NCBI GenBank assembly: GCA_012338575.1
Contig: GCA_012338575.1_3616.1
Strand: one strand, 5' to 3'
Length of the DNA stretch: 64,000 nt
DNA from: a phage
Under the pieces are notes generated by a model that was not told the DNA's origin, did not search any database, and was given only the letters and a program-made list of their open reading frames with translations. Position 1 is the first letter of the stretch; every line of letters begins with the position of its first letter. The position numbers and the translations under genes were made by a program. Below are positions 20,466 to 58,578 of this stretch, in pieces.

Positions 20466-20484
20466 AAAAACCCTCCACCCTGGT

Positions 20485-20685: not shown

Positions 20686-20969
20686 TTTCTAATCCTCTTC
20701 TTAGATTTTTGGGGAGAAACGCTTTCTGCAATACGAGACAAACGTTCTTCTGAAGCCTTGCCTATTCCAGGTTTTTTGAGTGGATTATCTTTATGACCAC
20801 AATCCAATTGGATATTGGATACCTCTCCAACCTTGTAAGTTAATTCTAGCAAAAGGTTGTCGTCCTTGTCAAATGTTCTTACGATAAATTTTTTATCGTT
20901 CTCCTGAACTTCATATCTGGTACCTGCAGTATACAGCATGGTGCCATCAGTGTAGGATATCCAAATCAT
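20682..20969 (-). CDS. hypothetical protein (95 aa)
   Basis: ORF in array. Confidence 0.45.
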   Translation of the reverse strand: MIWISYTDGTMLYTAGTRYEVQENDKKFIVRTFDKDDNLLLELTYKVGEVSNIQLDCGHKDNPLKKPGIGKASEERLSRIAESVSPQKSKKRIRK

Positions 20970-21313: not shown

Positions 21314-21373
21314 TCTCTCTACCTCTTTCTTAGTTTATTTAGTTATGGCACATCCTTTGTGCCTTATTGCACA

Positions 21374-21835: not shown

Positions 21836-22035
21836 CCCTCATCGCACGTCTGATATAACCACTCTATAAAATCTTGATACCATTCGCCCTCAGAGCGCTC
21901 CGTAGGCCAATAATCTTCACCCTCTCGTGCATTAAAATCTGAGTATTCAACTTTCCACTCCTTTACCAGCTCGTGGAGAAGGTTTTCAGCCTGCTCTAAA
22001 GATTTATTTTTTACCATTGCTGTCTCCTTTTTCAA
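21832..22035 (-). CDS. hypothetical protein (67 aa)
   Basis: ORF in array. Confidence 0.4.
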   Translation of the reverse strand: MKKETAMVKNKSLEQAENLLHELVKEWKVEYSDFNAREGEDYWPTERSEGEWYQDFIEWLYQTCDEG

Positions 22036-22236
22036 GATAGTTATACATCAGAACTACACCACCTAAGATGGCTACCAGTAACAATACCCCAGATAGCATC
22101 TCAATAAACATGGCTTGAAACACTGGAAGGTCTCCCTAAGTTAACGCACCATTTTAAATACATGCTCTTTTCCCATAAAGGTGCCTGGCTAAGATCTGCG
22201 TAGAACGCAATCTCTTTAAGAACAGTATAAACAGTT

Positions 22237-22473
22237 TTAGGTGCGGTCTCCATCCCTACTCTCCTTTTTCTCCTTACGAATATTCTTGTAGTAATCAACT
22301 AGGCACATTATTACGATGAAGATAACAATAGGCCAAAAAGGTGCAGCAGTGATGATGGTGATAAAATCATCAAACTTCACCTTTCGTCTAGACACGATGC
22401 ATATACCTGTCAAGAATACCGCTGTTATAACGGCTATTACCAGGTAACCTATTAGCACAACATTTATACTCAT
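22237..22473 (-). CDS. small membrane protein (78 aa, two predicted TM helices)
   Basis: Hydrophobic segments VVLIGYLVIAVITAVFLTGICIV and ITAAPFWPIVIFIVIMCLV. Confidence 0.45.
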   Translation of the reverse strand: MSINVVLIGYLVIAVITAVFLTGICIVSRRKVKFDDFITIITAAPFWPIVIFIVIMCLVDYYKNIRKEKKESRDGDRT

Positions 22474-44663: not shown

Positions 44664-45117
44664 GGTAACCCTCTATCCACGAAAAGTCAGTCTTCCATTC
44701 TGGAACTTTACTAAGCTCACGCCACTCTGCAAAGCAGTCTCGGTAATAGGCCTCTGCCATACCCTTGGTGATCTTATTCACCTTAGCTAACTGACTAACT
44801 GCCTGAGCATACTTCCCACGGATATTTGCTAACCCAGGATGCACCGATGTGTGACAATCCGGGCACAACGCTATCAGTCCGACAAGCCGGATCACTCCCT
44901 CTTCGAAAGTGTAAAGTTCATGACACTCCACTGGGTGTTTGCTTCCTTTACCGCCGCACACCTCACAGGTGTAGTTGGCTTCTCTATAGCACTTCTTGCG
45001 GATCTTATCCCACTCACTCTTCTTCACAGCGTTTCGGAGGTTATTATACCAAGCTGTTTCTGGGATCAGTTGCACAATAAGCCTGCGTTCAGACTTCATT
45101 AAACGTCCGTCTTCCAC
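44653..45117 (-). CDS. zinc-binding protein (HNH-like Cys/His cluster)
   Basis: CEVCGG...HPVECHE...CPDCH arrangement. Confidence 0.35.
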   Translation of the reverse strand: MEDGRLMKSERRLIVQLIPETAWYNNLRNAVKKSEWDKIRKKCYREANYTCEVCGGKGSKHPVECHELYTFEEGVIRLVGLIALCPDCHTSVHPGLANIRGKYAQAVSQLAKVNKITKGMAEAYYRDCFAEWRELSKVPEWKTDFSWIEGYLDG

Positions 45118-45126
45118 GTATTCTCC

Positions 45127-45333
45127 TCACTCAAAGAAATGGGTGCGAGGACAAGATCCAGCCTCGCCTTGTTTCACAAGCTCGTAGAGCTCACCTTGAC
45201 TTGTCTCATAAAGGCAAATACGTTTACCATTGTCCCGATATACATCGACAAGATACGCTGTTTCACCTGCAAACACGACACCACAGGCCAGACATGCTGC
45301 CATGAACAAAATTGCCAACAGAAAGTCTTTCAT
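45127..45333 (-). CDS. small secreted protein (68 aa, signal peptide)
   Basis: MKDFLLAILFMAACLACGVVFA hydrophobic leader. Confidence 0.45.
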   Translation of the reverse strand: MKDFLLAILFMAACLACGVVFAGETAYLVDVYRDNGKRICLYETSQGELYELVKQGEAGSCPRTHFFE

Positions 45334-45396
45334 GGTTAAACCCTCCTAAACATTTTATGAGGTAACAATACCACGTCCGTGTGGTTATGTCAATGA

Positions 45397-45867
45397 TCAA
45401 TCAAGGACAACACCGCCTGACTTTTTAAACACCTCGATCAACTTCTCAATCTTCTGTTCATGCTGACCATATCCAGCACCAGGCAACGAAGCCCAGCGGG
45501 AACGGCATTTATGGATAGCCTCGTGGATACGCCCTTCGTCAATGTCGGCGAGAGCCTTGCACTCACGGATCAGTTGCAACGCAATCTTGTCCTGACTGGC
45601 AGGGCCAAAATCTGGCAATCCTAACTGTTCCATGTAGTGTTTAGCAAACTTCTCCAAAACCTGGTAACGCCCAGCAGCGGAGGAGGTAAGTTTAGCATTT
45701 AGCTTAACGTAAACACCGGGATGCTTGCTGTAATCGCTGAACAGCTTGCCTCCGACTATGACATCGTATCCCCGATCCTTGGTAGGTTGTCTACCATTAT
45801 CTGTGCCTTCCGAATATGCGATCATATCCAAGAAAGCCTTTCGTTGAACATTTTTATCAAGTTTCAT
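45397..45867 (-). CDS. endolysin, lambda R-like lytic transglycosylase
   Basis: QRKAFLDMIAYSEGTDNGRQ...YDVIVGG...AGRYQ...WASLPGAGYGQHE is near-collinear with recalled lambda R (QRKAFLDMLAWSEGTDNGRQ...YDVIVGG...AGRYQ...WASLPGAGYGQFE). Confidence 0.85.
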   Translation of the reverse strand: MKLDKNVQRKAFLDMIAYSEGTDNGRQPTKDRGYDVIVGGKLFSDYSKHPGVYVKLNAKLTSSAAGRYQVLEKFAKHYMEQLGLPDFGPASQDKIALQLIRECKALADIDEGRIHEAIHKCRSRWASLPGAGYGQHEQKIEKLIEVFKKSGGVVLD

Positions 45868-46009
45868 TTTTCATACTCTCCAGTTCACTCATAACGAGCC
45901 CCGATCAGCACCACTGTGTGGTGTGGCTAGGTTGCACAGTTCATACATCAGGGCATATGTAGGTGCAAATTGAAAACACTTATTCAATTGGCTACTAAAC
46001 ATACCTAAA

Positions 46010-47293
46010 TTATTCCAGCACCTCCCAAGTGTCTGGGTTAACATTTCGGACGCAGATACCGACAGGGAATTGGTAGTTGTTGTCTTCTGTCCTTGCTTGA
46101 TATTTGAAGGTGACAAACTTGCCGATCATTTCCTGCATTCTGTCATAGCTACGCTCCTCGTGCGTACCTTTCATCTTCATTTTAACAACAATACCTTCCT
46201 TGTCAACACAGATAAGAACACCTTCATCATTCTTATCTTTCTCAACGTCAATAACTTTCACCTCTGCGTCGTTGAACTTTTTCCATTTCAATGCTTCAGA
46301 TGTTCGCTGACCGTACTCGTATTTACCGCAGAAATTACGCATGATAGTACCTTCATATCCTTCGGACATGAATATACCAACAGATTCTTCGCAATGATCA
46401 ACTGTGTACGCAAGCTCTGCGTCAACAACCTTGATATGGTCAAGCATCAGAGTGGTAACGGTATCCTCTGCATCCATAAGATCCTTGCAGCGTCCAGACT
46501 CTGTTTCTGGATCCCACCACACCTTGTCGCTAGGAATATCAAAAATGTGATACTCAAGATCGTAGCTACAGTACCCACCGTAACGCAAATCATCACGAAC
46601 AGGCTCAACATCGACAGGAATATCTACCTTGTTGAAGTTTTTGTATGTTGATAAGCCTGCCTTAATTGCGGCATGACGGCGTTTTTTATCTGCCTCATAG
46701 TCTTTATCGATCTCGGCCTGAATCTCTTCCTGTGTGCGCCACCGTTTAGCAAGAGACACTATTTTCTGCAAAGGAAGACCATGAATGTATAGTTCCCCAT
46801 CAAGTTGTTTAATCCCAGTGGTAGAATGGAAAGAACGAAGTTGCTCTAAAAGCTTTCCTTGAATAGGGTAGGACTTATTACCACGGGAAATAAATTTAGG
46901 CTCACCATTTTGGAAAACAACAAGCAGACGAAGGCCATCTAACTTACGCAAGATCCAGCAAGGTAGTTTAAGTGCCTTGCCACGCTTCAGGTAGTCATGC
47001 ACCAGCATGGGTAAAAGATCAACACCCTGCTCGCAATCTTCCATGTTTTCAACATACCCCAGACGGACTTGTTTTTCCCACTTGCTGATAGCCTCAAGCT
47101 CGGCCTGTTGCTCAGCGGTAGTCTCATTGGCACGACCTACGTTCTTAGGTGTGCATACCGTCTCTTTGTACTGCAATTTACCGTCAAGCTTGCCAAACTC
47201 TACGATAACCTTTTCGCCATCAGTGAATACTTTCCACTGTTGGTAGCTGCCATCTTTGTTCAGTGCGTACAGTGTTGTTTTGATTTGATGCAT
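46010..47293 (-). CDS. ATP-dependent DNA ligase-like nucleotidyltransferase
   Basis: Motif I RKLDGLR (KxDGxR), motif IV EGTIMR, motif V LKWKKF. Confidence 0.6.
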   Translation of the reverse strand: MHQIKTTLYALNKDGSYQQWKVFTDGEKVIVEFGKLDGKLQYKETVCTPKNVGRANETTAEQQAELEAISKWEKQVRLGYVENMEDCEQGVDLLPMLVHDYLKRGKALKLPCWILRKLDGLRLLVVFQNGEPKFISRGNKSYPIQGKLLEQLRSFHSTTGIKQLDGELYIHGLPLQKIVSLAKRWRTQEEIQAEIDKDYEADKKRRHAAIKAGLSTYKNFNKVDIPVDVEPVRDDLRYGGYCSYDLEYHIFDIPSDKVWWDPETESGRCKDLMDAEDTVTTLMLDHIKVVDAELAYTVDHCEESVGIFMSEGYEGTIMRNFCGKYEYGQRTSEALKWKKFNDAEVKVIDVEKDKNDEGVLICVDKEGIVVKMKMKGTHEERSYDRMQEMIGKFVTFKYQARTEDNNYQFPVGICVRNVNPDTWEVLE

Positions 47294-47562
47294 TACTCGG
47301 CCTCTTCCTTAAAAATTTTAAACATCTCTTCTTTACTCATTACCAACCAGTCTCCCATAAAGTCAACTAGCCAATCTCCCTGGTACAAGACAAGGTTACC
47401 AAAAGGCTCGACAAGCTCACACATGCGACGAAGATCTCTGGTCCGAACAGGTGACGATGTAAACACACCTGTATCAATCCACCGTTGCAGATCAGATACT
47501 GATGAAGAGCTTCCGTCAAACTGGTGGGCTTCTACAGGTTTAGCAAGATTAAATAACGGCAT
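47293..47562 (-). CDS. hypothetical protein (89 aa)
   Basis: ORF. Confidence 0.45.
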   Translation of the reverse strand: MPLFNLAKPVEAHQFDGSSSSVSDLQRWIDTGVFTSSPVRTRDLRRMCELVEPFGNLVLYQGDWLVDFMGDWLVMSKEEMFKIFKEEAE

Positions 47563-47857
47563 TGCAGTCCTCCTTCTGTAGTAGGTCTTTTATAGGATAA
47601 ACAAGTAAGTGTGGATCGGAATAACGTATAGTCTTATTCTGCCACACTATGAACTTTATTACAACCAAATTTACAATATCTTTATCACCATGTAGCCCAA
47701 CACACACATTTGTCCATATTTTGTGGTTGAAGATCTTGCTATCGATGTAGATTTTAGTGTCAAACTTATCTTCCATTCTACCTATAAGTTTGATCAGCTC
47801 CTTCATCTGGTCGCCAAACACAGCATCTTTTTCAAGATCTCTGGAATGCTTGTACAT
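47549..47857 (-). CDS. hypothetical protein (102 aa)
   Basis: ORF. Confidence 0.45.
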   Translation of the reverse strand: MYKHSRDLEKDAVFGDQMKELIKLIGRMEDKFDTKIYIDSKIFNHKIWTNVCVGLHGDKDIVNLVVIKFIVWQNKTIRYSDPHLLVYPIKDLLQKEDCNAVI

Positions 47858-47887
47858 AACTAACTACCTCGCTGCATACTTTCCATA

Positions 47888-47912
47888 ATAAGTAAAGCCG
47901 GGATCACCCGGC
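47888..47912 (-). terminator. hairpin terminator (leftward)
   Basis: GCCGGG-tgat-CCCGGC followed by TTTACTTATT on minus strand. Confidence 0.5.
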
Positions 47913-47919
47913 TATGTTG

Positions 47920-48633
47920 TCAAATATACTCTGTTACATCCTTGAAGCTCGAAGGCTTCATAATCTTACCTTTGCTGTCAAGGAATATAATAACTTTATT
48001 GCCGTTGTAGAACTCCTCTTTAGCAACGAAACCTTCGTAGCGACCACCAAAACGACGCTCAAGATCTTTAATCTCCAACTCGATGAGTTGTTCAGCAGGC
48101 ATATCTGCACTGGCACCGTGTGAATGCCGTAGATGGTTGATCCGCGCAAACTTACTGTCATTAGATTTGAGAACCTTCCGCATCATCCCACACACATCCC
48201 CGCTAAGCTGGAACAGCAAAGCTGTTGATAACTCCGCTAGTCGGTAAGCAGACGCTTTTTGCTTTGGTGTGTTTTTAGCAGCGATCAGTGTATCATAGAA
48301 CTCCCCAATCTTAAACTTAATATCTCGCGAATTATCAAACAGACTTGTCCACTTTTCGTAGTTATCGTTGACAAGATAAGCGGCATAACTTGTAACAACG
48401 TGCAGATCACAGGCCTCTTTTAGCAGGTGATCTCCACCATCACCTTTCTCCAACTCTTCAAGAACCTCATTAAACTCTTCTTCAATAAAACTGAGCTGGA
48501 GTTCGAATGGTGTGTATGATTTTTTCACTTTAGCTGCTACACGGTTCCAATTTTCCACCCAACTGGCAGACCAAAGGTAGTTTTCTGGCTGAGACAGTTT
48601 TTCCAGGTTGTCGATCAGTTTAGTATTTAGCAT
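47920..48633 (-). CDS. possible MazG-like nucleotide pyrophosphohydrolase
   Basis: FIEEEFNEVLEELEKGD...LKEACDL acidic helix pattern reminiscent of MazG EExxE motifs; weak. Confidence 0.35.
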   Translation of the reverse strand: MLNTKLIDNLEKLSQPENYLWSASWVENWNRVAAKVKKSYTPFELQLSFIEEEFNEVLEELEKGDGGDHLLKEACDLHVVTSYAAYLVNDNYEKWTSLFDNSRDIKFKIGEFYDTLIAAKNTPKQKASAYRLAELSTALLFQLSGDVCGMMRKVLKSNDSKFARINHLRHSHGASADMPAEQLIELEIKDLERRFGGRYEGFVAKEEFYNGNKVIIFLDSKGKIMKPSSFKDVTEYI

Positions 48634-48647
48634 TAAAAGGTCACCTC

Positions 48648-49409
48648 TTACAGTTCCATAAAGTTTTCTACAGTTTCAATAAATGCTTTATCAGAGAAAG
48701 CGTCAACAGCACCGTTAAACCATACAGGGATCCCGCGATCCTCATATTGATAAAGGTCGCTACGTGAAATGCCACTTCCATCTGCACTCTGCGAATCATA
48801 CTTGTTTACAATCAGCAGTTTTGTGCCTTTACAAGTAGCAGGAAACAATTCCCAGTTAAAATTAATAACTGTGTTAGAACAACCTACCAGGATCACCATA
48901 TCATTGCTGGTAAGAGATGTCAACAGGTCATACATGTCTGTATACTTAGGAGCAACCTCACCGAAGAACACTACATTGGGCTTAACCCAGGTATACTTGC
49001 CTGTATCTACCTCCGTGTACCCTATATTTTTAATTACATCATTACCTTCAGCATCTTCATAGGTGATTTCAGGCAAATACCCGTGGACATGTAAAATATC
49101 TTCATGTTTTACACCAGCACGCTCCAGCAAATCATCTACATTGGTGGTCAGGTTGATCACACGACCAGACCAGCGGGAATACCACTCAGCGATCCGGAGA
49201 TGTGCAAGGTTAGGATCAACACTGCCCAGAGCTACACGACGTGCATTGTAAAAGTCATGCACCTTATAGTAGTTCTTGGCGAAGGTGTGGATGTTGCACA
49301 CCTCATCTATGCTGAAATTCTCCCACATTGCAGTACTACCAGATCGGAAAGTGGGAATACCAGATTCAGCGCTCAAACCAGCACCGGAGATAATAATCAG
49401 TCGTCGCAT
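48648..49409 (-). CDS. Sir2-family NAD-dependent deacylase-like protein
   Basis: ISGAGLSAESGIPTFR (GAGxS..GIPxFR), TTNVDDL (cf. TQNxDxL) and HVHG motifs. Confidence 0.7.
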   Translation of the reverse strand: MRRLIIISGAGLSAESGIPTFRSGSTAMWENFSIDEVCNIHTFAKNYYKVHDFYNARRVALGSVDPNLAHLRIAEWYSRWSGRVINLTTNVDDLLERAGVKHEDILHVHGYLPEITYEDAEGNDVIKNIGYTEVDTGKYTWVKPNVVFFGEVAPKYTDMYDLLTSLTSNDMVILVGCSNTVINFNWELFPATCKGTKLLIVNKYDSQSADGSGISRSDLYQYEDRGIPVWFNGAVDAFSDKAFIETVENFMEL

Positions 49410-49417
49410 AAGTGCCC

Positions 49418-49768
49418 TCAGTAGATGTTTTGTTTAATCTCTATTCCAAACTTTTTAAACGAGTCAGCTGCAAGCATGAATTTACGAGCCGCTGATGGAT
49501 TAGAAGTATGTACGAAAATCTTCACGTTGTCAACCACGGGAGGCTTACCGAATACAAATTTTTCCTCCAACATGGATAGGCAATCGTATCCTTCGAATAC
49601 TTCTCCTAGGTCGTTGTCCATATGCCACTCAGAAACGCGTCTGTAGAGCTTTCCCTTATCGTTAATAAAATCCATAAACTCGGAGGAATTCTTCAGCCAA
49701 ACAGCGTCTGGGAGCCCGTAATTTGACGGATCTCTTAAGTCATCTAGCCACACAATCAACTTCTTCAT
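49418..49768 (-). CDS. hypothetical protein (116 aa) between Sir2-like and ligase-like genes
   Basis: ORF; no family recognised. Confidence 0.45.
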   Translation of the reverse strand: MKKLIVWLDDLRDPSNYGLPDAVWLKNSSEFMDFINDKGKLYRRVSEWHMDNDLGEVFEGYDCLSMLEEKFVFGKPPVVDNVKIFVHTSNPSAARKFMLAADSFKKFGIEIKQNIY

Positions 49769-50700
49769 TGCATATAGTTCTCGTTGTGGAAATAGTAATC
49801 AAGTATCTCACGGCGTTCCTGCTCCAGGAGGCAGTTCCACACATCCTCTGTGTAATTGCTACGAATGAAGTTTACCATGCCGTAAAACTCTTCGTCAACA
49901 CGTTTAAAGATATCATCATCCCAAATCTTCCAAGCTTTACCCCTCATTACGGCCTTCCGTGCCAGATAGTATGGAGACTTGATCTTCAGCTGCAGATCAT
50001 AAGGGTAGTAAGGCTTACGAATCATATACCCTTCACCTCTTGTTTCTGCAGCTAATTCTTTTGCATAGCTGAACGGAATTTCACGCACAGTGTGAGGACG
50101 TTTTGCACCAAGGTATTTGGCAATCCCATCTAAAGCTGCTTCTGGTAGCATTATTCCAGAATCATTATATCTGCAACCTATCAAATATGCGCCATGATCT
50201 TCCTGAACAATATGCGGATCTGAAGGGTGACAAATTTCAAACATGAATGTCATGTTTTCATTGCCCATAACCTTCTTGATAAGATCTAAATTACCACATT
50301 GCTCTTGGATGGTTTCCTTTGCAAGGTTACAATATGGAGAATCAAGAGACCCGGTTGTTGAGAACAATAGTTCACCTTTATGAGATGATACCACACCGAG
50401 GAATCCGTTCTTTTTCTCTACCGCAGTAACAAGTTTACTGTCCGGTAGGTTGGTGGAGTTTTCTCCTAAGTTGAATACTTTTGTGAAAGGCCATGCCACA
50501 ACATTCCCCTCATTGCCAACAACAATACCTCGGCACTCCAGTAAACGCGGAGACAAATGCCACAGATTGTTGTAGAATACTTTTCTGGCATATTTATAGA
50601 TCTTTAATCCAAGATCTGGATAATACCGACTGGTTACAAGACCTTTGTCTACTAGGTCATCTGCATTAAAATACTTCATCATACGTTCCTCATTTGTCAT
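49765..50700 (-). CDS. RNA-ligase-like nucleotidyltransferase (Rnl2-like motifs)
   Basis: Motif I EKKNGFLG (KxNG), motif IV GEGYMIRKPYYPYD (cf. recalled T4 Rnl2 EGYVLKPCYP), motif V LKIKSPYY. Confidence 0.5.
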   Translation of the reverse strand: MTNEERMMKYFNADDLVDKGLVTSRYYPDLGLKIYKYARKVFYNNLWHLSPRLLECRGIVVGNEGNVVAWPFTKVFNLGENSTNLPDSKLVTAVEKKNGFLGVVSSHKGELLFSTTGSLDSPYCNLAKETIQEQCGNLDLIKKVMGNENMTFMFEICHPSDPHIVQEDHGAYLIGCRYNDSGIMLPEAALDGIAKYLGAKRPHTVREIPFSYAKELAAETRGEGYMIRKPYYPYDLQLKIKSPYYLARKAVMRGKAWKIWDDDIFKRVDEEFYGMVNFIRSNYTEDVWNCLLEQERREILDYYFHNENYMQ

Positions 50701-50800
50701 TTTGTCAGTCTATCCTGCCACACAAATAACCTAGTGTCAACACTTGAAATTAACAAAACAGTTAGGTATACTATCATTAAAATTAAAACGGAGGATTGCT

Positions 50801-51211
50801 ATGTCTAAAATGCTATATATCGTGCGTGGTCTGCCAGGGTCTGGCAAATCAACACTGGCAAATGCGCTATCTTTAGAAGGTCTGTATCCACATTTTGAGA
50901 ACGACATGTTCTGGTATGACGATGACGGCAATTACAACTGGGATGCAAGTAAAGTAACACTCGCAGCAAAATGGTGCAAAGATAACGTAGAAGATATGAT
51001 GCGTATGGGATACGACCGTATCGTGGTAAGTAATACGTTTACAAAAGAAAAACATGTGCAGGAATATGTTGACATGGCAATCAGTCACGGGTATAGTTAT
51101 ACCGTGATCGTGGTTGAAAACCGCCACGGTAATAAAAGCATTCATGATGTTCCAGACAAGGTTGTGGATCGTATGGAACGCCAGCTTAAAAACTGCATTA
51201 AACTTAAATGA
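50801..51211 (+). CDS. P-loop polynucleotide-kinase-like kinase
   Basis: ATG 50801 after GGAGG; LYIVRGLPGSGKSTLAN resembles recalled T4 Pnk kinase IILTIGCPGSGKSTWA. Confidence 0.5.
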   Translation: MSKMLYIVRGLPGSGKSTLANALSLEGLYPHFENDMFWYDDDGNYNWDASKVTLAAKWCKDNVEDMMRMGYDRIVVSNTFTKEKHVQEYVDMAISHGYSYTVIVVENRHGNKSIHDVPDKVVDRMERQLKNCIKLK

Positions 51212-51218
51212 GGAATGT

Positions 51219-51773
51219 ATGAAATACTTTGTAACAAGCGACACACACTTTCTCCACCAGCGGGTCATGGAGTTTGATTCATGTCAAAAACACAGATCTC
51301 AGTATGATCACAATCTTGACAGTATGAATGCGGGAATCATCGCCGAGTGGAACTCTGTTGTGTCACCTGCAGACACTGTGTTTCACTTGGGAGATATTGC
51401 GTGCACTAATGATAAGAATATCAACAAATTGCTCCCAGATGTTCTAAATATGTTGAACGGACATATTATTCTTGTTCGTGGTAACCATGACACAAGGACG
51501 ACTGTCAGAATTATGAAAGAGTTCGGTCATGATGTTGTAGATTATTACGAGCTTCGCCACAACAAGAATTTGATCTGTATGAGCCATTACCAGTTTGCAA
51601 AGTGGAACAGAAAGCCTCACGGATCAGTCCAACTGTTCGGTCATGCTCACGGAACCACACAGCAGTTGTTTGGCAGGCAGTTTGATGTCGGTTGGGATGT
51701 GTGGGGGAGACTCTTACCATTAGAAGAGGCATACCGTATTGCAATGAGTCTTGCTATTGACAGCGGGGAGTAA
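51219..51773 (+). CDS. calcineurin-like metallophosphoesterase
   Basis: ATG 51219 after GAGGAA; motifs SDTHF, HLGDI, LVRGNHD, GHAHGT. Confidence 0.6.
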   Translation: MKYFVTSDTHFLHQRVMEFDSCQKHRSQYDHNLDSMNAGIIAEWNSVVSPADTVFHLGDIACTNDKNINKLLPDVLNMLNGHIILVRGNHDTRTTVRIMKEFGHDVVDYYELRHNKNLICMSHYQFAKWNRKPHGSVQLFGHAHGTTQQLFGRQFDVGWDVWGRLLPLEEAYRIAMSLAIDSGE

Positions 51774-51820
51774 TCCCTGCTATTTTAAAGAAAATTGCCA
51801 CACAAGGAGAATCAGGAGAT

Positions 51821-52171
51821 ATGAAAGATGGGGATAAGCTGCTATATCTTAAAGTCCCCCTTGAAATACTGTCTATGTCAAAAGTTTTGAATGACACAAC
51901 TGGGGAGGCTGTTGTTCTTGACTTATATGACAAGATCGTATACTGCTACCTGCACAACTGGTATAAGCTTGGAGGAAATTCACGCTTCACACCAAGCACA
52001 AGGAAAATTGCAGCAGATGTTGGGATAAAGAAAACAAAAGCAGCAGCGTGCGTTAAAACTTTAGAATGTGCAGGAGTGGTTGAAATATCCACACAAGGGA
52101 GAGGTAAAAGATGTACATTTTCCAAAGTTTTGCCACCAGAAGAGGTTATTCGAATGTCAACAACTGGTTAG
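51821..52171 (+). CDS. putative DNA-binding protein (HTH-like)
   Basis: TRKIAADVGIKKTKAAACVKTLECAGVV helix-turn-helix-like segment; adjacent to tandem palindromic repeats. Confidence 0.4.
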   Translation: MKDGDKLLYLKVPLEILSMSKVLNDTTGEAVVLDLYDKIVYCYLHNWYKLGGNSRFTPSTRKIAADVGIKKTKAAACVKTLECAGVVEISTQGRGKRCTFSKVLPPEEVIRMSTTG

Positions 52172-52242
52172 ACCAGTAAAAACTTAAATATCTGTACTAT
52201 AAGGATTCGTATGTTTTATGTTCGCTCTGGAACAGAGGTCAG

Positions 52243-52286
52243 TAACTGTCCGTGATACGGACACTAACTGTCCGTGATACGGACAC
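52243..52286. repeat. perfect tandem duplication of 22-bp unit TAACTGTCCGTGATACGGACAC (each with palindrome GTCCGT-gat-ACGGAC)
   Basis: Two identical adjacent copies; followed by AT-rich GTAC-repeat region 52320-52410. Confidence 0.8.
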
Positions 52287-52429
52287 ATAAAGAATATAAC
52301 TAAAATAACTAAATAATAAAAAATAAAAGATCTAGTACTTATGGTACTAAGTACATATACTTAACTTATGTAGAATATACTAGATCCTAAGTACCATGTT
52401 TTAAAATTATTACTTACTATAGGTAGTGT

Positions 52430-52700
52430 CGGCCCTTCATTGGCACTCGCCTACGAGGGGCGAGATGCCGGGCCTCCTTGGTGCACACAATAACAGAAGT
52501 GCATACATGCAGGTCTGTTAACATGTGTGGGAGCGAAGCGATAGCGCAGGCCAAAGGCCGAGCACTGATGTGGACCACCGACGAAAGCTTGCCAGCTCCG
52601 TAAGGAGTCGGTTGAGAGTCTCCCGCGCGAGCTTGGATGAAGTTTATGTGTGGAAACTGACAAGAAGGCCCCTAAATCGCTCCACAGCTATATGAACTAT
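52430..52700. other. GC-rich hairpin-dense non-coding region (candidate structured RNA)
   Basis: No plausible ORF; long hairpin GGCCC..GGCA-CTCGCC-tacgagg-GGCGAG-a-TGCC-GGGCC and several palindromes in otherwise AT-rich DNA. Confidence 0.35.
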
Positions 52701-52789
52701 ACCAGGTAATGCAATCGCACCAGTTTGATAGAAAAGCTCGTTACAAAGTGATACAGTGAGTTTTTCTATAACTTGAAGAGGAGGCAGCT

Positions 52790-53368
52790 ATGGGTTCACG
52801 CAAAGATGACCGTGAAAAGATTGCAAAACGTTATCAGAATGAAGAACAGATGGAGAAAACTTTCAAGTGGAAGCCTGGTTTCCAGCGTAATCATTCTAAC
52901 GCTCGTGATCGTAAGCATCCGGATAAGTGGCTAACACCGCCAAATGATGGCATGCAGGTTGGTGATGAGAAGGAGATGTCACCTGGAAAAGATGGCAACT
53001 ACATTCGCACTAAGGAAGCTGGTCCAAAGGATGACAGCTATCTTGTAGATAAGGTTCTTAATGGTATTGATGTAGATGTTGACACTGCACGAAACCTTTT
53101 TCTTGGTTGGTATCGTACAGGGTTTTTCGACATCAAGGCTATTCGTCGTGTTTGCGATATTAAAAAGTCTGCCTATGATGATGACTCCCTACATCGCACT
53201 CTGAGACAATACTCAGAGAGATACGGTCATCCAGTTATCACTCTTGACGATATTAACGAAGTGATGTATCATGCAGAGGTTGTTGCAGGTAGATTCGGTG
53301 ATGCATATCTAGATATCCTTTCTGCAAAGGATGAGGTAATGTTAAATAAGATTTACTATGAACGCTGA
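52790..53368 (+). CDS. hypothetical protein (192 aa)
   Basis: Strong SD GAAGAGGAGG. Confidence 0.6.
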   Translation: MGSRKDDREKIAKRYQNEEQMEKTFKWKPGFQRNHSNARDRKHPDKWLTPPNDGMQVGDEKEMSPGKDGNYIRTKEAGPKDDSYLVDKVLNGIDVDVDTARNLFLGWYRTGFFDIKAIRRVCDIKKSAYDDDSLHRTLRQYSERYGHPVITLDDINEVMYHAEVVAGRFGDAYLDILSAKDEVMLNKIYYER

Positions 53369-53567
53369 GGGGTGCTTAATGAACAATCCGGTAGCAAAGA
53401 ACTGTACTAAGTTTAATAAGTCTGCGATTCACACTGACAGGAAAAAGGGCTGGTCTCCTGACATTGACGAGGAGCTTGAGAGTTACTTTGAAGACCTGGT
53501 CACTAATGCAGATGAGGTTGCGATTAAAGAATACGCAGACAGGAAGGATAAGGCCGGAATCTGTTGA
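53358..53567 (+). CDS. hypothetical protein (69 aa)
   Basis: ORF overlapping upstream stop. Confidence 0.4.
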   Translation: MNAEGCLMNNPVAKNCTKFNKSAIHTDRKKGWSPDIDEELESYFEDLVTNADEVAIKEYADRKDKAGIC

Positions 53568-53643
53568 CAAAAATAGTGTTACCTGATAAGATCTGCAATA
53601 TGATGTGATGCAATTTTAACTTACGAGGTCTACAGGTAATGCT

Positions 53644-53886
53644 ATGTTTAAGGTTAAGCTCGTTTTTCGTTCCATGAATGAGGATTATTTAGAAGATGAA
53701 GGTGAATTTCGTGCACTGGATGATGCAATAGATTTTGCCAACGACTTAGCTTGTATGAATACAGGTTATGGGCTATGTTGTTGGGATGGTGGTGTTCAGA
53801 TCGGTGATAGCAAGATCTTCTACTTCTACCCTGAGCCTGATAACAAACAAATTAAGTATGTTTTATTTATTTGTGCTTTACAATGA
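53644..53886 (+). CDS. hypothetical protein (80 aa)
   Basis: ORF. Confidence 0.45.
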   Translation: MFKVKLVFRSMNEDYLEDEGEFRALDDAIDFANDLACMNTGYGLCCWDGGVQIGDSKIFYFYPEPDNKQIKYVLFICALQ

Positions 53887-54176
53887 GGTTGTTTTCGTGT
53901 ATCATGATGAATATCCAATTTAAAGATGAATTTGATGGCTTTATCTCCGGATGCTTTGAAACAGGGTTCGGAGAAGACTGAGTTCCCTTAGAGGGCTTGA
54001 TAGTGCACCACACTTAAAATGGTAGGGGCAGCCAGCACATGACGATGTGACCCCAGCCAACCTGTAATAAGGTCGAGCCTGAGCGCGGTAATGGGTATAG
54101 CTGGAAAACCCACTTGTTGGGTCTTGCTGGTCCAGGACGCTGGACAAGTCGCAGGGAATACCACCCTGCGGCGAAC

Positions 54177-54205
54177 TTGACAATCAGTATTTGCTATGAT
54201 AAAAT
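54177..54205 (+). promoter_or_regulatory. sigma70-like promoter (TTGACA, 17 bp, TAAAAT)
   Basis: TTGACA 54177-54182, TAAAAT 54200-54205. Confidence 0.5.
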
Positions 54206-54233
54206 CCACCTATCACGTGATAATGGAGGAAAC

Positions 54234-54572
54234 ATGGCGGATACAACTAAAAAGCGTCGCCGTAGAGGCAGACCTCTGAAAGAGGAGTCCAACGCCATTC
54301 AGCTAGAGAAGAACATCCTTGATATGAAGGAATCTTTTATAGCGATGGTTCCAGAAGCTCACAAAGTTTTAAGAGAGCTGATGTTGGACCCGAAAACCAA
54401 ACAAAATATTCGTCAAAGCATTGCAGAGTATGTTCTTGATAAGGCAGACCGAATGCAGGAAGAATATGATGAGATGTTTGGTGAAGAGGAAGAGGTGGTA
54501 GTAGAAGAGGCTGAAAAACCAGCACCTTTTATGCCATTTACCACAGAAATACAGCCTGTTGGCAATAGTTAA
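54234..54572 (+). CDS. hypothetical protein with basic N-terminus and acidic C-terminus (112 aa); possible DNA-binding/small terminase-like
   Basis: ATG 54234 after GGAGG; KKRRRRGRPLKEE N-terminus. Confidence 0.45.
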   Translation: MADTTKKRRRRGRPLKEESNAIQLEKNILDMKESFIAMVPEAHKVLRELMLDPKTKQNIRQSIAEYVLDKADRMQEEYDEMFGEEEEVVVEEAEKPAPFMPFTTEIQPVGNS

Positions 54573-54581
54573 AATATTTTC

Positions 54582-54610
54582 TTGACAAACTTTGCTTAAC
54601 AGTGTAATAT
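54582..54610 (+). promoter_or_regulatory. sigma70 consensus-like promoter upstream of tRNA cluster
   Basis: TTGACA 54582-54587, 17-bp spacer, TAATAT 54605-54610. Confidence 0.6.
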
Positions 54611-54668
54611 TGTAAACATGGTCTCCCACCTTTTCTGGCGGCTAAGGTGTAAAAGAAAGCCACCCAGT

Positions 54669-54743
54669 GCCCTGTTAGCTTAGTGGATAAAGCAGCGGCC
54701 TTCTAAGCCGTTGACACTGGTTCGAGTCCAGTACGGGGTGCCA
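54669..54743 (+). tRNA. tRNA-Arg (anticodon TCT)
   Basis: Manually folded cloverleaf: acceptor GCCCTGT/ACGGGGT, D-arm GCTT-AGTGGATA-AAGC, anticodon loop CTTCTAA, T-arm ACTGG-TTCGAGT-CCAGT, CCA encoded. Confidence 0.8.
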
Positions 54744-54873
54744 AGTTCTTTTTAATGTAGCTTACTTTAGCAGAGTAAATCTTCGGCAAGTGGCGGTAAC
54801 CACTTTACCGATACCTCATAGTTAGTGGTGAGAACACTAGCTATTTTAAAAAGAATTTAAATATTAGTATTTA

Positions 54874-54961
54874 GGTGAGTTAATTCCGTAGGGGTAGCGG
54901 GGCAGACTGTAAATCTGTTATCATTGCGATTCGGGTGGTTCGACTCCATCACTCACCACCA
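54874..54961 (+). tRNA. tRNA-Tyr (anticodon GTA), long variable arm
   Basis: Acceptor GGTGAGT/ACTCACC, anticodon loop CTGTAAA, T-loop GGTTCGACTCC, CCA encoded; 85 nt plus CCA. Confidence 0.8.
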
Positions 54962-55075
54962 AATTTATATTTTTAAATGCATAAATCATACAGGTAATGG
55001 CATTGATATTTATCGTCGTTTATACTAGTCACTAACTGCTCGAAAATCAGTGTCATTATCAGTATTGTTTATAAA

Positions 55076-55166
55076 AGAGGGTAGGGAGCAATGGTGCTCA
55101 AGCGGTCTTGAAAACCGTCCCGTTGAGGATGACTCGATGATGGTTCGATTCCATTATCCTCTGCCA
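55076..55166 (+). tRNA. tRNA-Ser (anticodon TGA), long variable arm
   Basis: Acceptor AGAGGGT/ATCCTCT, anticodon loop CTTGAAA, T-arm GATGG-TTCGATT-CCATT, CCA encoded. Confidence 0.75.
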
Positions 55167-55264
55167 TATTGTTGACCTTGTAATTAAGCGAAAGCCGGAA
55201 GCAGAACCGGATTATCAAATGTTACAGTCGTCATCGCCGACTAGCAACATGGTCAACATACTGA

Positions 55265-55361
55265 GCTAGGTAAGCCCTTTGGCAAGGGCGAGGATTTTTA
55301 ATCCTGAAAATAGACGAGGTAGTCGTTGAATACATAGGTGGTTCGATTCCATCACCTAGCA
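55265..55361 (+). other. aberrant tRNA-like element (canonical acceptor, D- and T-arms; anticodon region replaced/expanded)
   Basis: Acceptor GCTAGGT/ACCTAGC, D-arm GCCC-TTTGGCAA-GGGC, T-arm GGTGG-TTCGATT-CCATC, but middle is AGGATT-TTT-AATCCT hairpin plus about 30 extra nt; no encoded CCA. Confidence 0.4.
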
Positions 55362-55368
55362 CCTTTTT

Positions 55369-55444
55369 GCTGATGTAGCACAATTGGTAGTGCAATTGAT
55401 TTGTAATCAATAGGTTGCAGGTTCAAGTCCTGCCATCAGCACCA
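55369..55444 (+). tRNA. tRNA-Thr (anticodon TGT)
   Basis: Acceptor GCTGATG/CATCAGC, D-arm GCAC-AATTGGTA-GTGC, anticodon stem ATTGA/TCAAT loop TTTGTAA, T-arm GCAGG-TTCAAGT-CCTGC, CCA. Confidence 0.85.
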
Positions 55445-55445
55445 T

Positions 55446-55520
55446 GGCCCTGTAGCTGGAAGGTTCAAGCAAGCGACTCATAATCGCCAGACGGTGGTTC
55501 AATTCCACCCAGGGCCACCA
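55446..55520 (+). tRNA. tRNA-Met (anticodon CAT; elongator or Ile2-type)
   Basis: Acceptor GGCCCTG/CAGGGCC, anticodon loop CTCATAA, T-arm GGTGG-TTCAATT-CCACC, CCA; paired 1:72 argues against initiator. Confidence 0.75.
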
Positions 55521-55531
55521 AATAGTAAATA

Positions 55532-55608
55532 CTCCGCGTAGCTCAGCTTGGTAGAGCGCCTGATTTGGGATCAGGAGGTCGAGTGTTCGAATCACTCCGT
55601 GGAGACCA
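55532..55608 (+). tRNA. tRNA-Pro (anticodon TGG)
   Basis: Acceptor CTCCGCG/CGTGGAG, D-arm GCTC-AGCTTGGTA-GAGC, anticodon stem CCTGA/TCAGG loop TTTGGGA, T-arm GAGTG-TTCGAAT-CACTC, CCA. Confidence 0.85.
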
Positions 55609-55654
55609 CTTTCAGTTATACTTTAAACATATACAAACAAAAGGAACCTTTAAA

Positions 55655-55924
55655 ATGTATACACTTAAAATTGTAGAGCGTGTAAATCCAACCCATACCG
55701 TAGATTTTCGTGACGATTTCAATCCTCTGGCTGTAAATCTTCGAGAGTCATATCATGAACTCAGCTGCGATGCAGTGGTGGTCTTTTTTGAAGACAACTC
55801 TGAAGGGGCAGTAGCTTGTGTTGTTGATAGTGAGCAGAAGTTTTATATTTACAGAGATGTAGATGCATACTTGATGAATGAAAATGCAGTTACTGTTAGA
55901 ATCATCCACCGAGTGCCTCGATAA
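55655..55924 (+). CDS. hypothetical protein (89 aa)
   Basis: ATG 55655 after AAAGGAA; track ORF start lies inside tRNA-Pro. Confidence 0.5.
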   Translation: MYTLKIVERVNPTHTVDFRDDFNPLAVNLRESYHELSCDAVVVFFEDNSEGAVACVVDSEQKFYIYRDVDAYLMNENAVTVRIIHRVPR

Positions 55925-55977
55925 GTATTAGTCTCCTTTTAGTTAGTTTCGATCTATTTAGGTTACTCAATTTTAAC

Positions 55978-56011
55978 CCGCCCCGTTAGCTGTATAGCTG
56001 CGGGGTTTTTT
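55978..56011 (+). terminator. rho-independent terminator
   Basis: CCCCG..AGCTGTATAGCT..CGGGG followed by TTTTTT. Confidence 0.65.
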
Positions 56012-56029
56012 CGTTTCTGGAGCCTTAAA

Positions 56030-56428
56030 ATGATTTCAGGTTTAACATGGCTGAGTAGGTATAGAGGGATCATAAAAGGTTTAGTTTTTGCAGCGGCTAT
56101 AGGTACAGCTTATCTTGGGGCCGTGTATTGGTTTAACTCTAAGCTTAATGATGCCTACCAAGAGGGTGTGTCAGCAACAGAGTTAAAGTGGGAACGGATC
56201 CTTGATCAGCAACAAAAGCAGGCCGACAAAATTAAAATGGGCCACGCAGAGGAGGTTAAAAACCTTGAAAAATCTCTTTCTGACCTACAGGATAAATTAA
56301 ACATGGCTGAGAAGGCAGGTAAAGAAAAGCAGATTATCTACCTCCAATCACCTGAAGGTAAGAAGTCAACACTCCCTGATCAGCTTATAGATATTTATAA
56401 TGAGAGTATCAATCAGGAGGATCGATGA
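56030..56428 (+). CDS. i-spanin (Rz-like inner-membrane spanin)
   Basis: N-terminal TM helix LVFAAAIGTAYLGAVYWF then periplasmic coiled-coil; immediately precedes lipoprotein gene. Confidence 0.55.
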   Translation: MISGLTWLSRYRGIIKGLVFAAAIGTAYLGAVYWFNSKLNDAYQEGVSATELKWERILDQQQKQADKIKMGHAEEVKNLEKSLSDLQDKLNMAEKAGKEKQIIYLQSPEGKKSTLPDQLIDIYNESINQEDR

Positions 56429-56712
56429 GAGTTGCTACACTGTTTATTGCGTGCTTGTTATTATGTGGGTGTGCAACCAGTGTTGAGAAAGAATACAAGA
56501 TTGACCCTCCAGATGTAGGAAGGTTGATTGTTAAACCCCCGGAAGGTGCCATGAAACCACCTGCTAAAGCTATACCTTTAAAGAAAGGTGCGCCAGATGC
56601 GGTGAATTCTGGCATTATGAGGGATAATAATCTGTCTTGTAGCAATGATAGAGCTAAATTGATCATTTTGCAAGACTATATTAGAACACTGTTTCCAAAG
56701 GAGAGAGGTTAA
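56425..56712 (+). CDS. o-spanin (Rz1-like outer-membrane lipoprotein)
   Basis: Signal peptide MRVATLFIACLLLCGC with lipobox Cys; Pro-rich mature part; ATGA overlap with i-spanin. Confidence 0.55.
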   Translation: MRVATLFIACLLLCGCATSVEKEYKIDPPDVGRLIVKPPEGAMKPPAKAIPLKKGAPDAVNSGIMRDNNLSCSNDRAKLIILQDYIRTLFPKERG

Positions 56713-57137
56713 TGTCTAAGATTTACGGACCGTGTTCTGAAAAGCAGAAGATGATCCTCGAAAACGATGCAGATATTTTGGTAATCGGCGGTGCCGCAGG
56801 GTCTGGCAAGTCGTTCCTTTTGCAGTTGATGCCGCTTAAAATTATTGATGACCCCCACAGCTCTGTGGTTATGTTCCGAAGAACAACTCCACAGTTGGAG
56901 GGTGAGGGTGGACTATGGCCTAAAGCAGTAGCTATTTATAGTGATCTGCCTGAAAACATTAAGCCAAAGTTCAGAGAGAAGGATCATAAGTTCATTTTTC
57001 CACGGTTTGATCCTAACACTGGTAAGTGGGATAGAAGCAAAAAGGGAGCTGTTGTAAAATACTGCCACATGGAGTATGTACAAGATAAGCTTAACCATCA
57101 AGGGCTTGAGTACACCATGGTTTGCTTCGATGAGGGT
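56712..57137 (+). CDS. terminase large subunit, exon 1 (ATPase Walker A/B)
   Basis: Walker A GGAAGSGKS, Walker B MVCFDEG; reading frame hits stop at 57138-57140 inside intron. Confidence 0.75.
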
Positions 57138-57456
57138 TAATTTGTAGCTCTCGTAAAACCTCCCTAATTGCGGGGAAATCTTTATTATTGACACCACCAA
57201 CCTGTTATGGTAACATGATAGAGGCTTCGAAGAGAGATCGAAGGTATGGTAACAGTGTGTTAATTTAGATAATCCGCAGCGAAGCATCCGAGGGGATGAA
57301 CGTTCAACGACTAGTCGAAAGACGTAGAATCAAGCGATTCGAAACGGGAGGGTAAGCGGTTGTTGTCGCTTATAAGATATAGTCTGGTCTGCATGGAGAC
57401 ATGCAGCTGCCTGAAAATGGCGGGGCAAGACTAGCGACCTTGCCCGAACATAAACG
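57138..57456 (+). mobile_element. group I intron (ORF-less, td-like) interrupting terminase large subunit gene
   Basis: 319 nt without ORF; begins TAATTTG after exon T, ends ...GAACATAAACG; contains AGTCTGGTCTGCATGGAGACATGCAGCTG, AACGACTA, CGAAACG strings recalled from T4 td intron; splicing 57137/57457 is in frame. Confidence 0.75.
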
Positions 57457-58578
57457 ACACAATTCGAATGGGAGCAGATAGACTACCTGATGTCTCGTCT
57501 GCGATCTCAGTCAAAGTATCCATCAAGGATGGTTATCAGCTGTAACCCCGATTCAGAACACATGCTTGCCAAACTGGTTAGATGGTGGTTGGACGATGAA
57601 GGGTATCCAGATCCGGAGAAATGCGGTAAGAAAAGATATTTTATCCGACGCGACGGTGAATTTATTTGGGGAGACTCTAAGGAAGAGTTGATAGAGAAAT
57701 ACACCACGGTTAACGGACTGGGTGTAGAGATCAAGCCAAGACCGTTGTCATTCTCGTTCATAGGCGCAACAATATTCGATAATCCTGTCTGTTTGAGAGA
57801 CAACCCAGAATACCTTGCTTTCCTTGAAGGCCTGCCAGAACTTGAAAAAGCCCAGCTTCTTCATGGCAACTGGTTTGCAAAGCCTGAGGGTGCAAACTAT
57901 TTTCAAAGATCTTTCCTTCGTGATGCCGATAGAGTACCCCTTGGATCAGTATCTTGCAGGGCATGGGATAAGGCAGGAACCGAGAGAACTTCCGGTAATA
58001 AATTTCCTGACTTTACCGCCAGTGTTAAGGTAAGTAAAGATAGCGACGGCTTTTATTACCTGTCCGGTGATTATTGTCCTGAGAACGTGGATGACGGGAG
58101 GTATTCCACAGGTCTGGAAGGTAAGTTCTGTAAAAAGGCTGGTGAACGAGATGTGATCATCAGGAAACAGGCGCAGTTTGATGGTGATGATTGTATAATC
58201 GTATTCTCTGTGGACCCCGGTCAGGCAGGTAAGAGTGAGTTCTTAACATCCTCCAGATCCTTGCTTGCCGAAGGGTTTAGGGTTGAAGAAGACCCAATGC
58301 CTTCCAACAAATCTAAACTGACAAGGTTCTCACCTTTTGCCAATCTTGCCCAACAAGGAATGGTTAGGATTGTAAAATCCAGTTTCCATCCTGATACTCT
58401 GGAAGCATTTCTGACTGAACTTGAAAAATTCAACGGGGAAAGATCAACATTTAACAGGAAAGACGACTGGGCCGACTGTGTAGCTTCTGCGATTAATTTC
58501 CTGGAGAAAGAGGAGGTAGCACTTCCTTGTGTGATTCCATCAATCTCATCACCTTCTATGTTCAAGCGTTTTATCTAA
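57457..58578 (+). CDS. terminase large subunit, exon 2 (nuclease domain)
   Basis: Frame open from 57457 (TQFEWEQIDYLMSRL...); 373 aa C-terminal part; followed by terminator. Confidence 0.7.
   Translation, partial: TQFEWEQIDYLMSRLRSQSKYPSRMVISCNPDSEHMLAKLVRWWLDDEGYPDPEKCGKKRYFIRRDGEFIWGDSKEELIEKYTTVNGLGVEIKPRPLSFSFIGATIFDNPVCLRDNPEYLAFLEGLPELEKAQLLHGNWFAKPEGANYFQRSFLRDADRVPLGSVSCRAWDKAGTERTSGNKFPDFTASVKVSKDSDGFYYLSGDYCPENVDDGRYSTGLEGKFCKKAGERDVIIRKQAQFDGDDCIIVFSVDPGQAGKSEFLTSSRSLLAEGFRVEEDPMPSNKSKLTRFSPFANLAQQGMVRIVKSSFHPDTLEAFLTELEKFNGERSTFNRKDDWADCVASAINFLEKEEVALPCVIPSISSPSMFKRFI

Follow-up and report, generated by a model that had tools for sequence, protein, structure and literature searches.

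Which protein is the holin of a phage whose lysis genes are dispersed? The question is raised by a 64,000-nucleotide stretch of phage DNA (contig GCA_012338575.1_3616.1 of NCBI GenBank assembly GCA_012338575.1), referred to here as the window. An earlier reading of its letters, the original prediction, described a lambda R-like endolysin gene and a distant pair of spanin genes and recognized no holin. The phage is a Vequintavirus, an rV5-like coliphage with 97 to 99% nucleotide identity to phiWec189, PDX, Murica, and LL12 by megablast. Our analysis points outside the window, to the homolog of rV5 gp29 (protein family phrog_1322). We judge this protein to be probably the best holin candidate by guilt by association, because members of its family sit between endolysin and spanin genes elsewhere. 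The positions of all features are given in Table 1.

RESULTS

A holin candidate encoded in the tail fiber module

To find membrane proteins encoded outside the window, the rest of the genome of the relative MaxBurger was scanned for hydrophobicity. Two small membrane proteins were found in the late tail fiber module, one gp31-like and one gp29-like. The nearest relative, phiWec189, encodes a gp29 homolog, and no phrog_1322 homolog is encoded in the window. Homologs, conserved in all rV5- and phi92-like phages, were found in 374 phage records covering Vequintavirinae, phi92-like phages, Phapecoctavirus, and Aeromonas and Pseudomonas phages, a breadth equal to that of the spanins. The number of the family, phrog_1322, is close to that of the outer membrane spanin (o-spanin) family, phrog_1267.

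A profile search with the gp29 family returned 64 representative clusters with proteins of 65 to 158 amino acids (aa). The members share the motif SHTKxWSN...ASKFLSxKYG and differ in their charged C-terminal tails, and 9 of 62 have an extra N-terminal transmembrane domain (TMD). Lysine plus arginine (K+R) values of 2.35 before TMD1, 0.48 in the loop, and 2.58 after TMD2 fit an N-in/C-in topology. The family thus has the small size, at least one TMD, and the hydrophilic, charged C terminus by which holins are recognized. Three members touch the Pfam family DUF2644, indicating a distant relation. In UniProt, one member is named "Holin" and all others are "hypothetical." Neither "DUF2644" nor a named holin family of beta-proteobacteria turned up in a literature search. 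In rV5, a late-type promoter, TGTTAAAATA, is predicted upstream of gp30-gp29, and gp29 is the second gene behind this copy of the extended -10 motif TGnTAAAATA.

Members of the family occupy lysis cassettes in other phages. The Mu-like Pseudomonas phage Bise has the gene order Mor, endolysin (phrog_2649), phrog_1322 (E = 1e-19), Rz-like protein, and lipoprotein, with TerS farther on. In Ralstonia phage YO098_1, a late activator is followed by an endolysin (phrog_873), phrog_1322 (E = 4e-22), and an Rz-like spanin with an embedded lipobox open reading frame (ORF). The Bise phrog_1322 protein directly matches the Vequintavirinae gp29 homologs at 35 to 38% identity. With a sub-alignment of the family, 25 prophage loci were found in Burkholderiaceae, Cupriavidus, Moraxella, Nitrosospira, Nitrosomonas, Jeongeupia, Pandoraea, and others. 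An endolysin gene lies immediately upstream of the phrog_1322 homolog in 15 of these 25 loci, and the 15 endolysins form 8 sequence clusters unrelated by BLAST, including one of the lambda R type (phrog_90, Pandoraea). The downstream neighbor is a phrog_1403 Rz-like spanin in 12 of 23 loci, and an out-of-frame lipobox ORF lies inside or overlaps the downstream gene in 12 prophage loci. This position, between endolysin and Rz/Rz1, is the holin slot.

The order late activator, endolysin, phrog_1322, Rz/Rz1 of the Mu-like cassettes (Pseudomonas, Ralstonia, Cupriavidus, Nitrosospira, Jeongeupia, and Pandoraea) holds a direct homolog of gp29. The difference lies in placement, since phrog_1322 is part of a compact cassette there, whereas in rV5-like phages gp29 is in the tail fiber module, far from the endolysin and spanin genes. 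A lysis-gene context is accordingly found for the gp29 homologs of Bise, YO098_1, and the prophages but not in Vequintavirus itself. The original prediction would be refuted by a holin outside the window adjacent to other lysis genes, and this outcome is reached only in part: the candidate does lie outside the window, but in this phage it is not beside lysis genes.

Several observations weigh against gp29 as the holin. Neither gp29 nor gp31 is assigned to a holin class in Pfam, PHROGs, or NCBIfam. The gp29 family gene is embedded in the baseplate/tail fiber module in all large myophages, a few records label the product "structural protein," and the protein could be a tail assembly factor or a membrane-associated morphogenesis factor. 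The absence of gp29 peptides from the rV5 virion mass spectrometry (MS) file favors the holin assignment, but for a small hydrophobic protein it is weak evidence. Within the Mu-like cassettes, the phrog_1322 protein need not be a large-hole holin; it could instead act as a pinholin, as an antiholin, or in some other accessory role. Finally, two published holin candidates, encoded at 22237-22473 and 3797-4168, lie in the window. In phages of Aeromonas and Pseudomonas and in a T4-like phage of Stenotrophomonas, the family gene is always isolated or in a tail module, a location that is uninformative.

gp31 and the membrane protein genes near gp29

The second small membrane protein of the tail fiber module, gp31, offers a different answer. 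The holin may be another small membrane protein, or several: gp31, perhaps with gp29 as a holin/antiholin pair, or the 115-aa protein encoded in the window at 20966-21313. Conserved gp31 homologs occur in 224 Vequintavirinae records; the gene is in the late module, and gp31 peptides are absent from the rV5 virion MS data. In Seunavirus and Certrevirus, it belongs to a three-gene membrane protein block with the gp29 homolog. An N-in TMD and a periplasmic domain with two cysteines give the 115-aa protein a topology like that of T4 T. However, neither protein matches a holin family or has an endolysin or spanin context elsewhere, and the matches of gp31 are generic coiled-coil matches. We regard this alternative as improbable.

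The three-gene block was seen in Seunavirus (locus L009, 2501-3570) and Certrevirus (locus L010, 2501-3578), where the gp31-like gene, a gene for a 152- to 157-aa multi-TMD protein (phrog_7451), and the gp29-like gene are consecutive. It lies between a tail fiber assembly gene and a tail fiber gene. Vequintavirus is without the middle phrog_7451 gene and has a duplicated short tail fiber gene there instead. gp31 was also compared with a TMD/coiled-coil protein of the Moraxella cassettes, and the similarity was not significant.

The endolysin and spanin genes of the window

The endolysin gene was placed by the original prediction in the leftward block, and its strand and matches support that assignment. 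The protein matches lambda lysozyme R (PDB 1AM7/3D3D; E = 1e-55) over residues 4 to 154 of 156, with approximately 58% identity to lambda R over the full length, and phrog_90 "endolysin" (E = 8e-56); a Pfam scan of the protein gave no match. The SEGT motif is kept near the N terminus, where YSEGTDNG is aligned to WSEGTDNG of lambda, and its glutamate is presumably the catalytic residue, as in lambda R. The N terminus, MKLDKNVQRKAFLDMIAYSEG, is hydrophilic, with no hydrophobic window found, so the endolysin is predicted to be soluble and holin dependent. By its sequence, it is a cytoplasmic enzyme predicted to need a canonical hole-forming holin to reach the cell wall. Homologs are labeled endolysin or lysozyme in Murica, MiataMamis, and rV5 (gp89). 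The promoter predicted between the endolysin gene and the next gene downstream corresponds to the predicted P090 of rV5 Table S4.

In relatives, peptidoglycan hydrolysis has a second candidate enzyme, a SleB-like protein of the Hydrolase_2 family (PF07486; E = 2e-19) whose N terminus is a typical Sec signal peptide. Its gene (MaxBurger 58858-59358) is outside the window, directly upstream of rIIA/rIIB, which places an exported wall hydrolase in the nonstructural region of the relatives. A small holin gene beside the SleB-like gene, in the style of CB7, was looked for in relatives, and none was found.

The spanin pair is likewise where the original prediction put it. The inner membrane spanin (i-spanin), with a hydrophobic window at residues 14 to 32, matches phrog_4297 "Rz-like spanin" (E = 7e-49) and is annotated as an i-spanin in Murica, magaca, and MaxBurger. 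The o-spanin matches phrog_1267 "Rz-like spanin" (E = 2e-22) and is annotated as such in Murica and MaxBurger. Its N terminus, MRVATLFIACLLLCGC, holds the lipobox, giving the lipoprotein signal MRVATLFIACLLLCG followed by the lipobox cysteine; the protein has three PP motifs and one further periplasmic cysteine, in LSCSND. The i-spanin gene precedes the o-spanin gene with a 4-bp overlap (ATGA), and the second gene is not embedded in the first, which is the separated architecture. The i-spanin belongs to the "rv5" family, which has been listed among the separated spanins (Kongari et al. 2018).

The o-spanin stop codon overlaps the start codon of TerL, the large terminase gene (TAATG at 56710-56714). 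The original prediction described the spanin genes as translationally coupled to the terminase gene; the ATGA and TAATG overlaps are there, and coupling would follow from these overlaps only. The hairpin upstream of the i-spanin ribosome-binding site (RBS) has an equivalent in Murica, where a terminator is annotated. The intron found in TerL matches Rfam RF00028 (83.6 bits; E = 9e-20). TerL introns have been reported for rV5 and LL12. TerL is uninterrupted in MiataMamis and Murica, and the MaxBurger TerL intron carries a homing endonuclease; intron content in TerL thus differs between members of the genus.

A distance of 10.2 kb separates the endolysin and spanin genes, which are encoded on opposite strands and flank a divergent region near 50.7 kb, so the dispersal claimed by the original prediction, with a distance of about 10 kb and different transcription units, holds. 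GC skew and ORF orientation divide the window into three blocks, rightward from 1 to 13 kb, leftward from 13 to 50.7 kb, and rightward from 50.7 kb, and these blocks match the published transcription units of rV5. The dispersal is real but ordinary and is already part of published descriptions. The CB7 paper reports that the spanin pair adjoins the large terminase gene in CB7, rV5, and PVP-SE1, outside any lysis cassette, and the Murica and MaxBurger annotations show an equal spanin-TerL arrangement.

Candidate holins encoded in the window

Sixteen small transmembrane (TM) proteins, 13 from the window and 3 from relatives, were scanned against Pfam, PHROGs, and NCBIfam profiles, and none matched a holin family. 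The original prediction was thus right that no holin is recognizable among the window ORFs. The CPT annotations (Murica and LL12) name no holin. Our literature search found no holin identification and no transcriptome for rV5-like phages; a CRISPRi-ART study used the Vequintavirus EdH4 for MCP and rII only.

Promoters were also inspected. The T4-type late promoter TATAAATA is not enriched. De novo inspection recovered TGnTAAAATA upstream of structural genes, a motif found earlier in the rV5 paper. No convincing copy precedes the endolysin gene, the spanin genes, 22237-22473, or 3797-4168, and one copy, at 15595, falls inside a coding ORF. Because the intergenic copies are not upstream of any of these genes, promoter class does not discriminate among the window candidates.

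The first candidate named by the original prediction, 22237-22473, encodes a homolog (96% identity) of rV5 gp129, which had already been proposed as a "putative holin" (Kropinski et al. 2013). According to this proposal, the holin is a 78-aa two-TMD protein encoded in the long leftward unit with the endolysin. The protein has two TMDs and a Lys/Arg-rich C-terminal tail, and rV5 gp129 is the sole rV5 protein to which both TMHMM and Phobius assign two TMDs. Its gene shares strand and transcription unit with the endolysin gene and sits in a cluster of small membrane protein genes (20188-22473). Homologs in 116 Vequintavirus records have a strongly conserved TMD2 and loop, with variation in TMD1 and the tail. 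This conservation is nevertheless restricted to the genus (54 to 100% identity, with no relatives in 5.8 billion proteins), whereas the spanins are kept across the subfamily.

Other features of the gp129 homolog are also difficult to reconcile with holin function. Four K/R residues lie in the loop between the TMDs, where a periplasmic location would make them unusual, and the protein matches no holin family. Its gene is never beside a lysis gene. In three public assemblies from two lineages, including a 137-kb contig, one additional T (+1 T) in a T5 run deletes TMD2. If real, this frameshift argues that the gene is dispensable. Slippage or inactivation may have recurred, or the extra T could stem from a sequencing error at the homopolymer. 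Annotators of the CPT (Murica and LL12) and BASEL genomes did not accept the protein as a holin. Confined to the genus, without lysis neighbors, and with frameshifted variants, the gp129 homolog has neither the lysis-gene context nor the conservation to match, and we consider it unlikely to be the holin.

Four further membrane protein genes lie near that of the gp129 homolog (Table 1). By gene order, the rV5 counterpart of the 153-aa protein would be gp133, which is reported to be abundant in virions; this correspondence is unconfirmed by alignment.

A second published candidate is the 123-aa protein encoded at 3797-4168. The original prediction missed it, along with the ORF beside the endolysin gene described below. 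BASEL Vequintavirus records label its homolog "putative holin" (MaxBurger bas54_0115), a choice made by the BASEL curators from a transmembrane screen. As a holin, it would consist of two N-terminal TMDs and a cytoplasmic tail of approximately 75 aa. Size and TMD number are compatible with this role, and the protein is 90 to 100% conserved in 119 records. Its gene, however, is in the early block of TTGACA...TATACT promoters and terminators, directly after a terminator at 3742-3761, a position typical of host takeover or exclusion genes. The protein is also restricted to the genus, matches no holin family, has no lysis neighbors, and is hypothetical in the CPT annotation. It is quite improbable that this protein is the holin.

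The early block (1-13000, + strand) has many near-consensus sigma-70 promoters (TTGACA-N16/17-TATACT) and 31 terminators, against 13 expected. Each promoter/terminator unit drives a single tiny ORF or a few, and several of the products are single-TMD peptides. One of these peptides, encoded at 565-684, was the second candidate of the original prediction. At 39 aa, with a single TMD and no hydrophilic C-terminal tail, it is a poor candidate and unlikely to be a holin.

The 68-aa ORF adjoining the endolysin gene

The original prediction stated that no small TM protein adjoins the endolysin or spanin genes. This statement does not hold for the endolysin gene, since a 68-aa ORF with a hydrophobic N terminus lies 63 bp downstream. 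The ORF has a strong RBS and is 95 to 100% conserved in Vequintavirus. Its product has a probable signal peptide ending in VFA|GE and a conserved mature domain with two cysteines. Distant homologs with 35 to 38% identity occur in Salmonella phage SSBI34 and Serratia phage ChuuTotoro. These keep the AxA site and the motif DxYRDGNxKxCxY...GSCP but not the hydrophobic segment, and their genes lie between those for DNA ligase and an exonuclease, with no endolysin gene beside them. Table S3 of the rV5 paper lists no TMD for the counterpart, gp90, and a promoter is predicted just upstream.

Such an ORF might be a holin or an antiholin, which would give a minimal endolysin-holin cassette. Its place directly downstream of the endolysin gene, its hydrophobic N terminus, its strong RBS, and its high conservation agree with that idea, and a signal or signal-anchor-release (SAR) segment followed by a periplasmic domain is formally the topology of the T4 RI antiholin. 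The conserved part, however, is the soluble two-cysteine domain and not the hydrophobic segment, and AxA signal peptidase sites are present in all three divergent homologs. SSBI34 and ChuuTotoro retain the gene without an adjoining endolysin gene, and in rV5 it has its own predicted promoter and no listed TMD. On the signal peptidase sites, the conservation of the soluble domain, and the homologs without an endolysin neighbor, the ORF was rejected as the holin, and we consider a role as holin or antiholin very improbable. Its features suggest that the product is probably a secreted periplasmic mini-protein. It is conceivable that it acts as a lysozyme inhibitor, a superinfection exclusion factor, or an RI-like antiholin.

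Relatives and other features of the window

Vequintavirus comprises rV5-like myophages with genomes of approximately 136 kb. A megablast search with 45000-57200 matched 739 phage records. The top relatives were phiWec189 (99.0%) and PDX (98.4%), followed by Pr121LW, Mangalyan, LL12, and Murica (approximately 97%), all of them Vequintavirus. Approximately 20 GenBank records (MG0656xx) named "Campylobacter phage," with Campylobacter jejuni as the host, are 97% identical to Escherichia coli Vequintavirus genomes and are probably mislabeled or contaminant phages.

A tRNA cluster (Arg, Ser, Thr, Met, and Pro) lies at 54669-55608 (+). It includes an odd 99-nucleotide tRNA-like gene (55265-55363) with a 4-base anticodon call (ARAGORN "???"), which scores 35.5 bits against the Rfam tRNA model and is "tRNA-OTHER" in Murica. 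A tRNA at 54874-54958 was called by Rfam and is absent from the ARAGORN calls.

Table 1. Positions of lysis genes, candidate holins, and neighboring features; coordinates are those of the window unless a locus is named
Feature	Position	Strand	Description
gp29 homolog	~31 kb beyond right end of window, late tail fiber module		88 aa; two moderately hydrophobic TMDs, acidic loop, charged tail; phrog_1322
gp31 homolog	Outside window, late tail fiber module, beside tail fiber chaperone		104 aa; N-terminal TMD and coiled coil; rV5 gp31, phrog_5345
Endolysin	45397-45867	-	156 aa; soluble lambda R-type lytic transglycosylase (GH104); no signal or SAR segment
i-spanin	56030-56428	+	132 aa; N-terminal TMD (~14-32), then helical charged periplasmic domain
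o-spanin	56425-56712	+	95 aa; lipobox LLLCG|C; Pro-rich
gp129-like protein	22237-22473	-	78 aa; two TMDs, basic C-terminal tail; rV5 gp129, phrog_10061
+1 T truncated gp129 homologs	L013 1501-1680; L014 313-492; L015 996-1175		Truncated before TMD2
39-aa ORF	22004-22123	-	Single TMD; near gp129 homolog
153-aa protein	21374-21835	-	C-terminal TMD; near gp129 homolog
115-aa protein	20966-21313	-	Type II membrane protein, two Cys; near gp129 homolog
31-aa peptide	20188-20283	-	TM peptide; near gp129 homolog
123-aa protein	3797-4168	+	Two N-terminal TMDs, tail of ~75 aa; phrog_13090
39-aa early peptide	565-684	+	Single TMD; phrog_16391; in early promoter/terminator array
68-aa ORF	45127-45333	-	20-residue hydrophobic N terminus; 63 bp downstream of endolysin; rV5 gp90, phrog_4641
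Predicted promoter	45365-45393	-	Sigma-70 type, extended -10 (TTGACA-N14-TGgTATTGT); between endolysin and 68-aa genes
Terminator-like hairpin	55977-56015	+	GC hairpin and T run; directly upstream of i-spanin RBS
TerL	56712-58578	+	Split by group I intron
Group I intron in TerL	57128-57406	+	Without homing endonuclease ORF

DISCUSSION

In the most likely reading, the phage has a T4-style nonclustered lysis system with three parts, of which the window carries two. A cytoplasmic R-type transglycosylase, made from the leftward replication and nucleotide metabolism unit, would have to wait for a canonical, hole-forming holin to reach the wall because it has no export signal. The holin would be the 88-aa, two-TMD, N-in/C-in gp29 homolog from the tail fiber module, approximately 31 kb beyond the window. 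The i-spanin/o-spanin pair, read with TerL where the rightward structural unit begins, would then fuse or disrupt the outer membrane after wall degradation.

This arrangement resembles that of T4, an analogy drawn also by the rV5 paper and by the spanin survey. Each of the two is a large, virulent myophage in which the genes for holin, endolysin, and spanins are unlinked and the spanins have the separated architecture. In T4, these genes are t (holin), e (endolysin), and pseT.3/pseT.2 (spanins); rIIA/rIIB are found in relatives of the window phage. If gp29 is the holin, its gene lies beside tail fiber genes as T4 t lies beside genes 37 and 38. The two systems differ in that the endolysin is of the lambda R type rather than the T4 E type, the spanin genes abut TerL, and the candidate holin is a class II-like protein with two TMDs, whereas T4 T has one TMD and a large periplasmic domain. 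The rV5-like phage also has no gp33/45/55 late transcription genes. With lambda, the phage shares a soluble endolysin that needs a holin and then a two-component spanin. Unlike the genes of the lambda S-R-Rz/Rz1 cassette, those of the window are unclustered, with 10 kb and a change of strand between endolysin and spanins; the spanin genes have the separated and not the embedded architecture, and no S homolog is present.

Within the window, genes and layout are identical to those of the published Vequintavirinae (rV5, LL12, Murica, CB7, and BASEL), with no difference. Large virulent myophages normally have dispersed lysis genes, and the finding as originally written adds little. The only new element is the assignment of the holin to gp29/phrog_1322, which lies outside the window; none of the rV5, LL12, Murica, CB7, and BASEL sources points to this family as the holin. 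We lean toward a broader version of this assignment, in which gp29/phrog_1322 would supply the missing holin of the rV5-like phages, the phi92-like phages, and large myophages related to them. The protein would then be a member of a widespread DUF2644-related family that is not classed as a holin in Pfam, PHROGs, or NCBIfam and that would also serve the Mu-like cassettes of beta- and gamma-proteobacteria. gp31 and, in the sister genera, the multi-TMD protein may be regulators.

If true, the assignment of gp29 would cover several hundred genomes of coliphages that are therapeutic candidates and of Klebsiella, Salmonella, and Cronobacter phages. At present, annotations of these genomes either name no holin or disagree in their guesses. 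Knowledge of the holin would help to explain when lysis occurs, to engineer therapeutic phages that lyse fast or are lysis deficient, and to make annotation uniform.

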